DNA from: a virus
Taxonomy: Duplodnaviria > Caudoviricetes
DNA length: 64,000 bases
Direction: 5' to 3' (one strand)
Virus record (IMG/VR): IMGVR_UViG_3300020414_000007
Span: 1-64,000 of that record
Shown: one piece after another, positions 17,498-62,813 of the stretch
How the letters are laid out: each line of letters opens with the position of its first letter
Numbering within the stretch: the stretch's first letter is position 1
The notes under the pieces: model-generated
The model's database searches: none
The model's input: only the letters and a program-made list of their open reading frames with translations
What the model was told of the DNA's origin: nothing
Made by a program: the position numbers and the translations under genes

Positions 17498-17503
17498 ATA
17501 TCT

Positions 17504-17725
17504 GTTGAGTTGATCGCTCAACACGGGAGTGACCGAATAACCCTGTTGGAATTTGGCGGGGTAAGGTAAATGATTAGAGGTGGTGCTCGCTGCTAGGTCC
17601 GTCCTAGAGAACCCCGACCAAGGGAATCATTGTTGTTATGCCCAAAATTTCGCACTAGCGATTCCCATAACATGAGGGTAAAATGTAATCCCTCCTCCCA
17701 CACCCTACAAAGGGTGTATTTTTTT
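17504..17725 (+). ncRNA. structured ncRNA resembling the manA RNA motif
   Basis: ORF-free, GC-richer stretch with its own promoter and terminator (ACACCCT..AGGGTGT + T run); 5' hairpin GTTGAG/CTCAAC; GGGAGTGACCGAATAA and GGTGGTGCT blocks match my recollection of manA RNA. Confidence 0.6.
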
Positions 17726-57866: not shown

Positions 57867-58047
57867 GCGACAAGTCACAATCACTCTAAGCAAGTCACTC
57901 CAAGAGGATTTCAAATCCTTCTTGGCGTGTTGTGAGTCCTTAGAGGTAGAGCCAAGAATTAACTCTTTTTTATATTATGTCGCAAACTATGGTACCGAAG
58001 GAAGTAATGGGACTGACAGTATTCAACAGCAGAAAGGTGGACACTAA
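57859..58047 (+). CDS. hypothetical protein
   Basis: Overlaps the end of nrdA and the start of nrdB. Confidence 0.45.
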   Translation: MSERQVTITLSKSLQEDFKSFLACCESLEVEPRINSFLYYVANYGTEGSNGTDSIQQQKGGH

Positions 58048-59143
58048 AAAACAACCAATGTTTTTTGGTCAACCTCTAGGTATGCAGAGATACGATGAAT
58101 ATAAGTATCCTGATTTTGATAGACTCACGCAACAGCAACTAGGTTATTTCTGGAGACCTGAAGAGGTGTCACTCCAGAAGGATCGTGCAGATTATAAAAC
58201 TCTTACTGATCAACAGAAGCATATCTATACTTCCAACTTGAAGTATCAGATTCTCCTAGACAGTGTGCAGGGCAGAGGTCCTGGCATGGCATTCTCTCCT
58301 TACTGTAGTCTTCCTGAGTTGGAAGGATGCATGGGTGTCTGGGAATTTATGGAGCAAATTCATTCTCGCTCCTACACTCACATTATCAAGAATGTATACG
58401 CTGATCCATCAGAAGTATTTGATAGTGTGCTAGAGAATGAAAAGATTTTGGCACGGGCAGAGTCCGTCTGTGCCGCCTACAATGATTTTATCACTGTAGC
58501 AACTGAATGGGCAAACAGTAACATGTGGAAACCTGACTGGAAAGAGTCACCCACTTCACAGTGGACACTCAATGATGTCAAGCGTAGACTCTACCGTGCT
58601 GTTGCCAACGTTAACATCTTAGAAGGAATTAGATTCTATGTCTCGTTTGCGTGCAGTTTCGCGTTTGGCGAACTTAAACTCATGGAGGGATCTGCGAAAA
58701 TTATCTCTCTTATCGCCAGAGATGAAGCACAACATCTTGCACTTACTCAAAAAATACTCAAGAAGTGGAGAGAAGGTGATGACCCAGAGATGGAAGTCAT
58801 TGCTGAAGAGGAGAAACAGAATGTAAAACAAATGTTTATCGATGCAGTAGACCAAGAGAAAGAGTGGGCAAACTATCTCTTTGCTGATGGATCTATGATC
58901 GGACTCAACGAAAGACTACTCTCACAATATATTGAATGGGTTGCAAACCGTCGCATGAGAGCGGTGGGTATTCAACCAGTCTACGATATTCCTTGGAAGA
59001 GTAATCCACTGCCATGGACAGAGCACTGGCTAAATAGTCGTGGTCAACAAAATGCTCCTCAGGAAACTGAGATTGAGTCCTATGTCATTGGAGGTATCAA
59101 ACAAGATGTCCAAGGAAACACCTTCGCAGGATTTTCACTATAA
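58007..59143 (+). CDS. nrdB: ribonucleotide reductase, beta subunit
   Basis: FWRPEE, EQIHSRSY, EGIRFY, RDEAQH (alternative start 57977). Confidence 0.97.
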   Translation: MGLTVFNSRKVDTKKQPMFFGQPLGMQRYDEYKYPDFDRLTQQQLGYFWRPEEVSLQKDRADYKTLTDQQKHIYTSNLKYQILLDSVQGRGPGMAFSPYCSLPELEGCMGVWEFMEQIHSRSYTHIIKNVYADPSEVFDSVLENEKILARAESVCAAYNDFITVATEWANSNMWKPDWKESPTSQWTLNDVKRRLYRAVANVNILEGIRFYVSFACSFAFGELKLMEGSAKIISLIARDEAQHLALTQKILKKWREGDDPEMEVIAEEEKQNVKQMFIDAVDQEKEWANYLFADGSMIGLNERLLSQYIEWVANRRMRAVGIQPVYDIPWKSNPLPWTEHWLNSRGQQNAPQETEIESYVIGGIKQDVQGNTFAGFSL

Positions 59144-59654: not shown

Positions 59655-59707
59655 TGTAACAAAGAATACATTATAACCTTATAAATAGTAGCAGGATATG
59701 TTATAAT
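59655..59707 (+). promoter_or_regulatory. NtcA box + late promoter + extended -10
   Basis: TGTA-ACAAAGAA-TACA (59655-70), TATAAATA (59680), TGtTATAAT (59699-707). Confidence 0.6.
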
Positions 59708-59713
59708 ATCCTC

Positions 59714-59940
59714 ATCGTTCATCCCTTAGGGGACGCAAGTAAGTCGCGGAACGGAGCGTTCATCCCATGCTAGGATTCTTCCTACTTTATACCACAATTA
59801 ACTGTATTGATGCTGCCGATATGATCGGTCGTCTCGATGCACATGATGGTATGAGCGACGCAGTGAAGGCAGAACTTGTTGAAGTAATTCAAGAAGCAAC
59901 ACCACACTGCTCATGGGACGCAAACGACTAAAGGAACGGG
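59714..59940 (+). ncRNA. tandem glutamine-riboswitch-like (glnA / Downstream-peptide) aptamers
   Basis: Two CGTTCATCCC...GGGACGCAA...GGAACGG units directly upstream of a YRG-motif gene. Confidence 0.75.
59767..59931 (+). CDS. 54-aa ORF nested in the second aptamer
   Basis: MLGFFLLYTTINCIDAADMIGRLDAHDGMSDAVKAELVEVIQEATPHCSWDAND; GGAG 11-14 nt upstream. Confidence 0.6.
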   Translation: MLGFFLLYTTINCIDAADMIGRLDAHDGMSDAVKAELVEVIQEATPHCSWDAND

Positions 59941-59973
59941 CCTAAAAATCCAACTACTTTAGGAGTAAATCTA

Positions 59974-60117
59974 ATGGCACAAATTACTTACCGTGGCGTT
60001 AAGTATAACGCTGAGCAATACAAGGCAAAGGTCCTTGCAGAGCAGGATCAGCGCAGAAACCATGAGCTTATGTATCGTGGTATCAAAGTTGATCGCAAAT
60101 TCGCATCCAAGAGCTGA
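59974..60117 (+). CDS. DUF4278-like small protein (two YRG motifs)
   Basis: MAQITYRGVKY...LMYRGIK; SD AGGAG. Confidence 0.85.
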   Translation: MAQITYRGVKYNAEQYKAKVLAEQDQRRNHELMYRGIKVDRKFASKS

Positions 60118-60121
60118 GATC

Positions 60122-60223
60122 ATGGAAGCACTACAAGTCGTCGGTGGAATCTCCATCGGTTGTGTAGCATTTCTATTTCTCATTATGGGTGAAGTCCACC
60201 TACTAAAAGTTAGTAGGGGGTAA
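60122..60223 (+). CDS. 33-aa membrane peptide
   Basis: MEALQVVGGISIGCVAFLFLIMGEVHLL. Confidence 0.6.
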   Translation: MEALQVVGGISIGCVAFLFLIMGEVHLLKVSRG

Positions 60224-60227
60224 AGAG

Positions 60228-60392
60228 ATGCGGGTCAAACTGGTTTTCGATTATGGACTTCCAGATTATGACCCCGAGAAGCACGATCCAGATAAGACAT
60301 TTGCATTTCTTGTCTATCGCGGTGTGTCATATGCTAAATGGGTTAACCTCAAGAAGCATTTTGGCACATCTTCTTGGAAAGTTACGTCTTGA
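60228..60392 (+). CDS. second YRG-motif small protein
   Basis: ...AFLVYRGVSYAKW. Confidence 0.65.
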   Translation: MRVKLVFDYGLPDYDPEKHDPDKTFAFLVYRGVSYAKWVNLKKHFGTSSWKVTS

Positions 60393-60396
60393 ATGT

Positions 60397-60422
60397 GAGG
60401 GGGTTTACCACCCTCTTTTTTT
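60397..60422 (+). terminator. intrinsic terminator
   Basis: GAGGGGG...ACCCTC followed by a T run. Confidence 0.75.
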
Positions 60423-60456
60423 GTGCTAATATATAATGTAACTCTGTATCTCAGTT

Positions 60457-61131
60457 ATGAAAATCTTTCTCGACAGTAGTGATGTTGAAGAAATTAGAGC
60501 AGCAAACGAGACAGGATTGATTGATGGTGTAACAACTAACCCGTCACTGATTCTTAAGTCTGGGGGTGATCCAGTAGAAGTCATTTCAGATATTGCTGAG
60601 ATGTTTCCATGGGATTCATCCATCTCCGCTGAAGTAGTAGGTGAAACCTACGAAGATATGATCGATATGGCAGATGATTATATTCAGATCAATCCTAATA
60701 TCACTATTAAAGTGCCGTGCACAGTCGAAGGACTGAAAGCATGTAAAGAATTGGCAGCGGATGACATTAAAGTAAATGTCACGCTCATCTTTAGCACAGC
60801 ACAAGCAATCCTTGCTGCCAAAGCAGGGGCAACTTATGTGTCACCTTTTGTAGGTAGATGCAATGATAACTCAGTGTCTGGTGTGGAGTTGGTCCGAGCG
60901 ATCTCCAACACATACCAGTCACATGGCGTGAAGACAAACATTCTTGCTGCATCACTTCGTGATGTGCATCATGTGTCACGCTGTTTCCTTTATGGAGCAG
61001 ACGTAGTAACCATGCCACCTAAGGTCTTCTGGAAGATGTATGATCATGTACTGACTCGTGAAGGTCTTGCAATCTTTGATAAAGATTGGGCACAAGTACA
61101 GGAGATGATGAGTGAATTACGAAAAGGTTAA
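60457..61131 (+). CDS. talC: transaldolase (TalC type)
   Basis: IFLDS, GVTTNPSL, TIKVP, YVSPFVGR. Confidence 0.96.
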   Translation: MKIFLDSSDVEEIRAANETGLIDGVTTNPSLILKSGGDPVEVISDIAEMFPWDSSISAEVVGETYEDMIDMADDYIQINPNITIKVPCTVEGLKACKELAADDIKVNVTLIFSTAQAILAAKAGATYVSPFVGRCNDNSVSGVELVRAISNTYQSHGVKTNILAASLRDVHHVSRCFLYGADVVTMPPKVFWKMYDHVLTREGLAIFDKDWAQVQEMMSELRKG

Positions 61132-62739: not shown

Positions 62740-62813
62740 GGTCTAGTAGCTCAGCGGATTAGAGCAACTGCCTTCTAAGCAGTCGGTCGTAGGTTCGAAT
62801 CCTACCTAGATCG
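62740..62813 (+). tRNA. tRNA-Arg(TCT)
   Basis: Cloverleaf: acceptor GGTCTAG/CTAGATC, anticodon stem ACTGC/GCAGT with loop CT-TCT-AA, T-arm GTAGG-TTCGAAT-CCTAC; no encoded CCA. Confidence 0.95.

Follow-up and report, generated by a model that had tools for sequence, protein, structure and literature searches.

A probable nested double glutamine riboswitch closing around a gene in the leader of a small cyanophage operon

Introduction

The stretch of DNA analysed here, hereafter called the window, comprises the first 64,000 nucleotides (nt) of the IMG/VR virus record IMGVR_UViG_3300020414_000007, a record of 186,016 bases from an ocean cyanophage of the T4-like cyanomyovirus type. Between nrdB (57977-59143) and the transaldolase gene talC (60457-61131) it carries two units resembling glutamine riboswitch aptamers, each beginning with CGUUC and ending with GGAACG, and the locus raises the question of how two such units are joined to one another. 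The original prediction for this locus held that neither unit has a P3 hairpin of its own and that AGUCG (59742-46) of unit 1 pairs instead with CGACU (59925-29) of unit 2, the whole forming a strand-swapped or cooperative double riboswitch. Every string and coordinate that it gave for both units is present in the window, and the local P3 hairpin of glutamine-I riboswitches is absent from both, the two strands named above being the ones that pair.

The reading preferred here, to which we assign a probability of about 0.68, is that the element is a nested double glutamine riboswitch forming the leader of a small cyanophage operon located between nrdB and talC. The nested architecture appears well supported by the comparative evidence given below. 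According to this model P3 is a shared helix of five base pairs, both ends of which open into a three-way junction. The outer junction is supported as a canonical type-I (glnA) aptamer, with the predicted outer P1, P2a, a CGC linking strand, the E-loop halves AGUA and AAA around P3 and a long-range pair C59736:G59939. The inner junction is supported as a circularly permuted core which would lack an E-loop and would consist of a hairpin P1, P2b closing around a gene and a long-range pair C59921:G59754. In the best model one core thus lies inside the P3 of the other, and the two are not neighbours. The parts of the two cores, with (a) and (b) marking the first and second copy of a string, are as follows.

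59716..59720, + strand: CGUUC(a), 5' strand of the outer P1, pairing with GAACG 59934-38 in the nested model
59722..59733, + strand: P2a hairpin UCCC-UUAG-GGGA, preceded by an A after CGUUC(a)
59734..59741, + strand: linking strand a (CGC), an A and the 5' E-loop half AGUA (59738-41), together CGCAAGUA; C59736 in this linking strand is the predicted long-range partner of G59939
59742..59746, + strand: 5' strand of P3, AGUCG, covarying with 59925-29 and followed by a single C
59748..59753, + strand: GGAACG(a), of which GAACG 59749-53 pairs with CGUUC(b) 59757-61 in the nested model to give the inner P1 hairpin
59754..59756, + strand: loop GAG of the inner P1, in which G59754 is predicted to form a long-range pair with C59921
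59757..59761, + strand: CGUUC(b), 3' strand of the inner P1, read from the sequence
59763..59769, + strand: 5' strand of P2b, UCCCAUG, holding the start codon 59767-69 of the embedded gene
59912..59918, + strand: 3' strand of P2b, CAUGGGA, 142 nt past the 5' half of unit 2
59919..59924, + strand: linking strand b (CGC 59919-21) followed by AAA; C59921 pairs with G59754
59925..59929, + strand: 3' strand of P3, CGACU, covarying with 59742-46
59930..59932, + strand: 3' E-loop half, AAA in the window, GAA in about half of the relatives and GAAGGAACG in the Rfam consensus
59933..59939, + strand: GGAACG(b) 59933-38, the 3' strand of the outer P1, with G59939, which is predicted to pair with C59736

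Relatives of the element and covariation of P3

A complement of 5 nt within about 180 nt is not significant in a single sequence, and it is the comparison with relatives that decides. A first set of relatives comprised 36 IMG/VR loci found through the embedded protein together with three named phage loci, no RNA pattern having been used. Across these 39 loci and the window both core junctions were almost identical letter for letter, while the gene between them diverged. Further relatives were obtained from pattern scans, which added 120, 97 and 34 loci and in which the six nucleotides after AAGUA were either left free or forced off the consensus. A total of 286 loci was collected. Both halves could be parsed in 259 of these and in the window, and 213 unique elements resulted, which fall into four layouts: a short P2a with P2b closing around a gene (126 unique elements), genes in both P2a and P2b (44), both hairpins short (35) and a gene in P2a only (8). 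The compact homolog set used below consists of 38 distinct sequences with both hairpins short and no embedded genes, such compact forms having a length of about 80 nt.

Over the 259 loci P3 was fully Watson-Crick in 244, held one G-U pair in 13 and one mismatch in 2. The figure of 244 is made up of 242 loci recognised by script and of L258 and L265, which were found to be paired once a 4-nt joiner was read. Seven different Watson-Crick versions were present among the relatives, and their proportions, listed below, are not natural frequencies because two of the scans were aimed at variants of the 5' strand.

AGUCG:CGACU, 131 loci
AGUCA:UGACU, 71 loci
AAUCG:CGAUU, 27 loci, and 2 more after correction for the 4-nt joiner
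AGUCU:AGACU, 4 loci
AAUCU:AGAUU, 3 loci
AGACU:AGUCU, 3 loci
AUUCG:CGAAU, 3 loci
One G-U pair, 13 loci
One A-C mismatch, 2 loci (L196 and L220)

The 3' strand of P3 was included in no search pattern. When the 3' strands were shuffled among the loci, a mean of 158 and a maximum of 172 loci were fully paired, compared with 255 observed, and none of 2000 shuffles reached the observed value. The covariation of the proposed cross-pairing across these cyanophage loci is far beyond chance. The same was seen in the 38 compact homologs, for which 99.4% of cells were paired (92.3% when shuffled) and the covariation score was 0.218 (0.078 when shuffled, with none of 500 shuffles reaching the observed score); sliding the partners by one to three columns lowered the pairing to 33-53%. 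Scans for variants at the two middle nucleotides of P3 gave no matches in either case. The two strands lie 178 nt apart in the window and 38-48 nt apart in the compact relatives, and they enclose the second core and, in the window, the gene as well. On this comparative evidence AGUCG:CGACU is a real helix.

Topology of the two cores

As both CGUUC and GGAACG occur twice, two pairing registers are possible, namely a nested one and a side-by-side one. CGUUC(a) was invariant in all 38 compact homologs and GGAACG(b) in all 260 parsed elements including the window, in which CGUUC(b) was also always found 3-5 nt past GGAACG(a). The type-I family model of Rfam (RF01739) scored 43.6, 42.9, 41.0 and 36.9 bits on four of five compact homologs, above its gathering score of 35, and 33.1 bits on the fifth. 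In these alignments the first CGUUC was paired with the last GGAACG and P3 was read as AGU-(38-48 nt)-ACU, which is in agreement with the original proposal of a glnA-like core rebuilt from the 5' half of the first unit together with the 3' end of the second. The E-loop halves are split between the units, with AGUA occurring only in unit 1 and GAA or AAA before GGAACG only in unit 2, and both flank P3. CGCAAGUA was invariant in the 39 loci found without a pattern and in the window, and it fits the Rfam type-I consensus CGGAAGUA. The joiner pattern of glutamine-I riboswitches, CG(G/C)AAGUA...GAAG, is present as the linking strand, then P3, then AAAG 59930-33, with AAA replacing GAA. The P1 strings expected of this class, CGUUC and GGAACG, each occur twice in the window and are invariant in the relatives, and a P2 hairpin of the form (U/A)CCC...GGG(A/U) after CGUUCA is found both at 59722-33 and at 59763-69/59912-18. 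Compensatory changes were seen at three of the four P2a pairs in the compact homologs, and the first four pairs of P2b, formed with 59915-18, were kept in all 167 unique gene-bearing elements examined, in which CG, UA, UG, AU and GC types occurred. The nested fold was returned by RNAalifold on the compact alignment and was also the minimum-energy fold of one compact homolog (L166).

Further evidence on the register came from the long-range pairs. The solved structures show a pair between the third nucleotide of the linking strand and the one that directly follows GGAACG (PMC6698751, available in part). Among the parsed loci a change of G to C at 59754 came only with a change of C to G at 59921 (6 of 6 loci). 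A scan of all IMG/VR for elements with a nucleotide other than G at 59754 gave 23 matches, 5 of them unrelated, and the double change was found in all 18 true elements, on four P3 backgrounds. In the reverse scan, among the 120 matches listed, of which 82 were unrelated, a linking strand b of CGG stood with C at 59754 in at least 12 elements and with G in at least one. The nucleotide after GGAACG(b) was G in all 260 elements including the window, and the outer long-range pair C59736:G59939 is present and invariant. Since 59754 and 59921 covary and the nucleotide after GGAACG(b) is always G, linking strand b would dock on the helix that contains GGAACG(a), as it does in the nested register. The strand exchange that had been predicted, namely CGUUC(a) with GGAACG(b) and GGAACG(a) with CGUUC(b), is contained in the best model and is supported by this covariation.

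The units could also be two side-by-side aptamers, each having its own P1, with AGUCG:CGACU serving as a pseudoknot-like bridge, and this is considered to be unlikely. Unit 1, transcribed about 170 nt ahead of the 3' half of unit 2, is able to fold by itself, the core nucleotides are complete in each unit, and a type-II aptamer can assemble from exchanged strands, as seen in a crystal dimer and a two-piece form (PMC6698751, in the part available). However, the side-by-side fold would break both long-range pairs in all 18 elements with C after GGAACG(a), as GGAACG(b) is invariably followed by G; in the nested fold neither pair is lost. It would also leave AGUA and GAA flanking P3 without the P1 that adjoins them in type I, it is at odds with the Rfam type-I alignment covering the whole compact element, and its skeleton energy without P3 is -16.2 kcal/mol compared with -23.3 kcal/mol for the nested skeleton. 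It is quite possible that the same RNA adopts the side-by-side fold when free of ligand or while being transcribed.

A number of points weigh against the nested model and should be noted. All four P1 strands are invariant, which leaves no direct covariation on which CGUUC pairs with which GGAACG, and the nested assignment therefore rests on one covarying long-range pair, the E-loop halves and the Rfam alignment. Loci of one lineage share changes, so that independent events are fewer than the locus counts suggest; for P3 a minimum of six separate double changes was counted. The plain minimum-energy fold of the window RNA (59714-59980) pairs CGUUC(a) with GGAACG(a), as the side-by-side fold would. 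The E-loop half of the window is AAA and not the consensus GAA. Linking strand b is CGA, uncompensated, in 25 of 38 elements among the matches listed in the reverse scan and in 10 of the 260 parsed elements, and some phages therefore do without the inner long-range pair. The loop of the inner P1 is only 3-5 nt long and lies at the glutamine-binding end of the solved structures, where it could hinder the binding of glutamine. The ligand, the cooperativity and both regulatory directions, moreover, are matters that we infer.

The family scores of the window also belong among these points. When the glnA and Downstream-peptide covariance models were applied, as the original prediction had proposed, the window was below threshold for both, with 30.0 bits for RF01739 (gathering score 35) and 25.3 bits for RF01704 (gathering score 33), while four of the five compact homologs exceeded the RF01739 gathering score; RF01704 gave 20.8-31.1 bits in the five. 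The sub-threshold matches in the window fall on unit 1 alone, which would also be expected of side-by-side aptamers. At gathering thresholds Rfam reported no glutamine family in the window, and a permissive scan gave unit 1 only, below threshold. A covariance model of the compact nested form built for this study matched the window at 59714-59830 with 43.2 bits, and this match was rejected as spurious in its mismatched 3' part, which lies inside the gene. It is assumed that a single covariance-model match does not extend as far as the true 3' half, which lies 227 nt from the start.

In one relative (L113, positions 194-245) a third glutamine-I aptamer with its own small P3 was found directly before the nested pair (35.1 bits, gathering score 35), the three together making a triplet.

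Genes embedded in the P2 hairpins

The second P2 hairpin of the window closes around a gene, which the original prediction did not recognise and the signals of which overlap the parts of the inner core.

59753..59756, + strand: GGAG, ribosome site of the embedded gene
59767..59931, + strand: embedded gene of 54 codons (phrog_504) in the loop of P2b; its stop codon UAA 59929-31 starts on the final nucleotide of P3 and extends into the E-loop

The embedded protein matched phrog_504 in PHROG (72.2 bits, E 4.1e-20), and no match above the cut-off was found in Pfam. The Protein Atlas placed it only in clusters called 'hypothetical protein', of which two carry a taxon record, viral in both cases, and it is annotated as a hypothetical protein in phages P-RSM1, S-SSM5 and P-TIM40. 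Among the relatives the entropy in the middle of the gene was 1.45 at third codon positions, 1.03 at first positions and 0.55 at second positions. In the last seven codons, where the gene overlaps the RNA motif, the third-position entropy falls to 0.24, and the nucleotides of the 3' strand of P2b are invariant despite synonymous freedom. This pattern of substitution is that of a coding region, and the embedded 54-codon gene is a real one.

In 160 of the 170 unique elements with a gene the stop codon (UAA in 67 and UGA in 93) lies exactly at the junction of P3 and the E-loop, taking its first letter from the end of P3 and the other two from the start of the E-loop half. An AUG stands 9-12 nt past the start of CGUUC(b), inside the P2b stem, in 156 of the 160. 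The linker between GGAACG(a) and CGUUC(b) was GAG, GAGC or GAGU, each giving GGAG, in 146 of the 170 gene-bearing elements but in only 7 of 43 gene-less ones. As the GAG type of linker is frequent only with the gene present, it doubles as the ribosome site of the gene. Both the ribosome site and the AUG of the embedded gene are inside the inner core.

P2a was also observed to close around an open reading frame (ORF), of 66-69 codons, in 51 unique relatives (L024, L030, L134 and 48 others). This gene ends either at a UAA inside AAGUAAG, with a peptide end of ...GRK, or directly ahead of the 3' stem strand. The P2a and P2b proteins are distant paralogs (hhalign probability 92.3%, E 5.5e-7).

The overlap of the inner P1 loop with a ribosome site bears on a further explanation, according to which only the outer type-I core senses glutamine and the inner core is a scaffold or a translation lock that binds no ligand. 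The inner junction has no E-loop, its P1 is closed by the 3-5 nt loop at the binding end, the uncompensated CGA of linking strand b occurs in at least 25 elements, and the loop is of the ribosome-site type when a gene is present. All of this would suit such a role, which is nevertheless held to be improbable: the inner core keeps, judged by position in the shared motifs, the invariant pairs that contact glutamine in the solved structures, namely C:G at the end, G:C involving the middle G of CGC, and U:A, to which GGAACG contributes its first G (PMC6698751, as far as available), its long-range pair covaries, and it is kept in gene-less forms, among them 43 unique elements with a short P2b and the 38 distinct sequences short in both hairpins. 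A last explanation, that the conserved strings are mainly the boundaries of shuffled small-gene cassettes, kept by recombination or coding constraints and not by an RNA fold, would account for the presence and absence of genes at both P2 positions in the four layouts (126, 44, 35 and 8) and for the two paralogous families, but it was set aside as very improbable, given that the changes in P3, P2a and P2b are complementary and not identical, that covariation persists in gene-less forms, that a curated riboswitch model is matched and that third codon positions are frozen only at the RNA motif.

Downstream gene and proposed regulation

The nested element is followed by a gene of a class known from other glutamine riboswitches and by the features listed here.

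59957..59965, + strand: CUUUAG 59957-62, which can pair with CUAAAG 59928-33 as an alternative and overlaps AGGAG 59961-65, the ribosome site of the DUF4278 gene
59974..60117, + strand: DUF4278 (IF17-like) gene of 47 codons, from Pfam and PHROG
60397..60427, + strand: terminator-like hairpin (60397-60417) and T run, from a consensus scan only

The product of the gene starting at AUG 59974 matched the Pfam family PF14105 with 26.2 bits (cut-off 25.3) and phrog_5049 with 86.5 bits, and the downstream gene is annotated as DUF4278 in S-SSM5 and P-TIM40. Glutamine riboswitches control this class of DUF4278/IF17-like genes (Klahn 2018, PMC6212724, available in part), for which they act as ON switches in the available portions of PMC6212724 and PMC6698751.

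CUAAAG 59928-33 begins in the last nucleotides of P3, runs through the E-loop half and takes in the initial G of GGAACG(b), and it is complementary to CUUUAG 59957-62. In 218 unique downstream tails the combination of 59930 with the corresponding ribosome-site nucleotide was A-U in 109, G-C in 70, G-U in 29 and A-C in none, and in 10 tails the partner of CUAAAG was not found. The CUAAAG:CUUUAG helix is present in the minimum-energy fold of 59714-59980 and is mutually exclusive with P3 and the E-loop. The skeleton energies of two OFF-like folds (-19.0 and -17.7 kcal/mol) are close to that of the nested fold. A single anti-ribosome-site helix is placed after both cores.

Both cores retain, by position in the shared motif, every glutamine-contacting nucleotide reported for the type-I and type-II structures by Huang 2019, in the part of that work available. 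L-glutamine is proposed as the ligand from these conserved contact nucleotides. Glutamine would stabilise both cores and with them P3, the E-loop and the outer P1. The stabilised fold would withdraw CUAAAG 59928-33 from CUUUAG 59957-62, leaving AGGAG free and translation of DUF4278 ON, the same direction as in the known glutamine switches. We infer that glutamine turns DUF4278 ON because the alternative helix covers the ribosome site and DUF4278 is the gene downstream. The same folded state would bury GGAG 59753-56 and AUG 59767-69, and the embedded gene would be translated mainly at low glutamine. Ribosomes terminating at UAA 59929-31 would have to unfold P3 and the E-loop, and translation and sensing would for this reason compete on one RNA.

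Glutamine riboswitches are weak binders with affinities in the millimolar range. With one helix coupling two sites, the response to a ligand of such affinity could become sharper. It is tentatively suggested, as a possibility that remains doubtful, that the element is a two-site, two-output cooperative switch giving the embedded small protein at low glutamine and the IF17-like regulator of glutamine synthetase at high glutamine, with ribosomes resetting the sensor. Should this hold, one sensing fold would include a coding sequence and its stop codon as well as a circularly permuted aptamer, and the phage would both read and steer the nitrogen state of its host.

In several relatives (L047, L050, L075, L002 and others) an extra conserved piece was observed between GGAACG(b) and the ribosome site. 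It consists of ACGGAUC, a covarying hairpin and then AGAAGGUU, the ribosome site being shifted 40-49 nt downstream, and no Rfam family matches it. Behind the DUF4278 gene of the window lie a possible 33-codon hydrophobic ORF (60122-60223) and a 54-codon gene (60228-60392) that matches phrog_6192 with 92.8 bits and has a YRG motif like that of the DUF4278 proteins. The terminator-like hairpin at 60397 is likely to mark the end of the small operon before talC.

Genomic setting, upstream signals and RNA libraries

The region 59660-60120 matched 443 phage records, nearly all of them from phages of Synechococcus or Prochlorococcus. In the records of P-RSM1, S-SSM5 and P-TIM40 the region lies between the nrdB-side gene and talC and carries no RNA feature, being annotated only as 'hypothetical protein' or DUF4278. 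A scan of genome contigs for host forms gave at least 121 matches, and among the matches listed none had the junction or a plausible aptamer. Elsewhere in the window a manA RNA (17503-17704; RF01745, 119.8 bits) and a tRNA (62740-62813; 70.3 bits) were found.

Upstream of the element, TGTAACAAAGAATACA at 59655-59670 is a perfect TGTA-N8-TACA palindrome, a form which we take to be that of a box for the nitrogen regulator NtcA. In 115 of 206 unique upstream regions a GTA-N8-TAC begins 52-61 nt ahead of CGUUC(a), compared with about 6 in shuffled sequences anywhere in 100 nt, which suggests that transcriptional nitrogen control is added to that by the riboswitch. A second palindrome, AGGATAT-GTTATA-ATATCCT with TATAAT at 59702-07, is located at 59693-59712, just before the riboswitch. 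In the relatives a palindrome with different arm sequences stands at the same place, and in about 34 of them it is GTA-N8-TAC itself; the palindrome at 59693-59712 may be either a 5' hairpin of the RNA or a protein site. TATAAATA at 59680-59687, 29 nt before CGUUC(a), is presumably the word of a T4 late promoter, and it was found within 70 nt in only 32 of 209 unique upstream regions.

The stretch is also present in assembled contigs of four marine RNA libraries (X1-X4) from three studies, X1 and X2 being of one sample. These contigs show no transcript ends, strand or level, and with DNA carry-over possible their depth is not evidence of expression or regulation. The summed contig depth is very high over the cores (59728-59770 and 59912-59970), with bins of about 5000 and about 7800 in X3 compared with at most 45 outside 59728-60009. 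Contigs in which a short loop such as TTCG replaces the gene are present in the RNA libraries, and short-hairpin variants occur as joints. The exact-match contigs of X1 had a depth of 32 before the element and 131 after it.

Comparison with known systems

The element is, judged from its sequence, a new architectural variant of a known riboswitch class. With glutamine-I riboswitches (RF01739, such as the gifB/IF17 leader of Synechocystis; PMC6212724, in the part available) it shares the outer P1, P2, the linking strand, the E-loop halves and the long-range C:G pair, as well as its site before a DUF4278/IF17-like gene, and the expected logic is the same in that glutamine would free the ribosome site. 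It differs in that P3 is not a hairpin and has a second core and, in the window, a whole gene inside it, in that the window is below the Rfam cut-off and in its E-loop half AAA.

With glutamine-II (Downstream-peptide, RF01704; structure 6QN3) the element shares the nucleotides of the binding core and the CGCA linking strand. The CUAAAG:CUUUAG helix enclosing GGAACG(b) resembles the type-II P2, and both occur in marine picocyanobacterial settings before DUF4278 genes. The type-II RNA assembles from exchanged strands in the crystal, according to the available part of PMC6698751. In contrast to type II, which lacks both, the element has E-loop halves and a covarying P3, and the type-II-like helix is here the alternative (OFF) pairing and not part of the bound fold.

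Glutamine riboswitches are known in T4-like cyanophages (PMC9964418 and PMC9602691, each available in part), and tandem glutamine riboswitches with two cores in one leader have been described (Sherlock et al.). The tandem catalogues of Sherlock et al., so far as available, very likely include relatives of the present element. In the portion of that work available the tandems are separate and in series, whereas here a helix is shared, P1 strands are exchanged and a gene is enclosed. The tandem arrangement called 'pseudo-cooperative' comprises complete aptamers, each with its own stems and platform; here P3 is shared and there is one anti-ribosome-site helix. The word 'nested' does not occur in the available text of PMC9481103, and literature searches gave no description of a shared P3, of a permuted inner core or of a gene inside P2, although an earlier drawing of the arrangement may exist.

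The layout is widespread, with the 443 matching phage records and hundreds of IMG/VR contigs. As family scans miss the gene-bearing forms and the genome records opened are without RNA annotation, riboswitch censuses probably under-count and mis-class it. As this element shows, a complete translated gene can be enclosed by an aptamer hairpin, with the same letters acting as sensor, ribosome site, codons and stop codon, an arrangement that would tie ligand sensing to ribosome traffic. It would also place a phage IF17-like regulator under direct control of the glutamine level of the host.

The tandem glycine riboswitch offers a parallel, as it likewise has two coupled aptamers for the same ligand and one expression platform, with a possibly sharper response. 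The glycine aptamers stand side by side and are joined by tertiary contacts, whereas the two cores described here would be nested, with one of them permuted and a Watson-Crick helix common to both. A nested pair sharing one helix would thus offer a testable route to cooperativity that is built unlike the glycine tandem.

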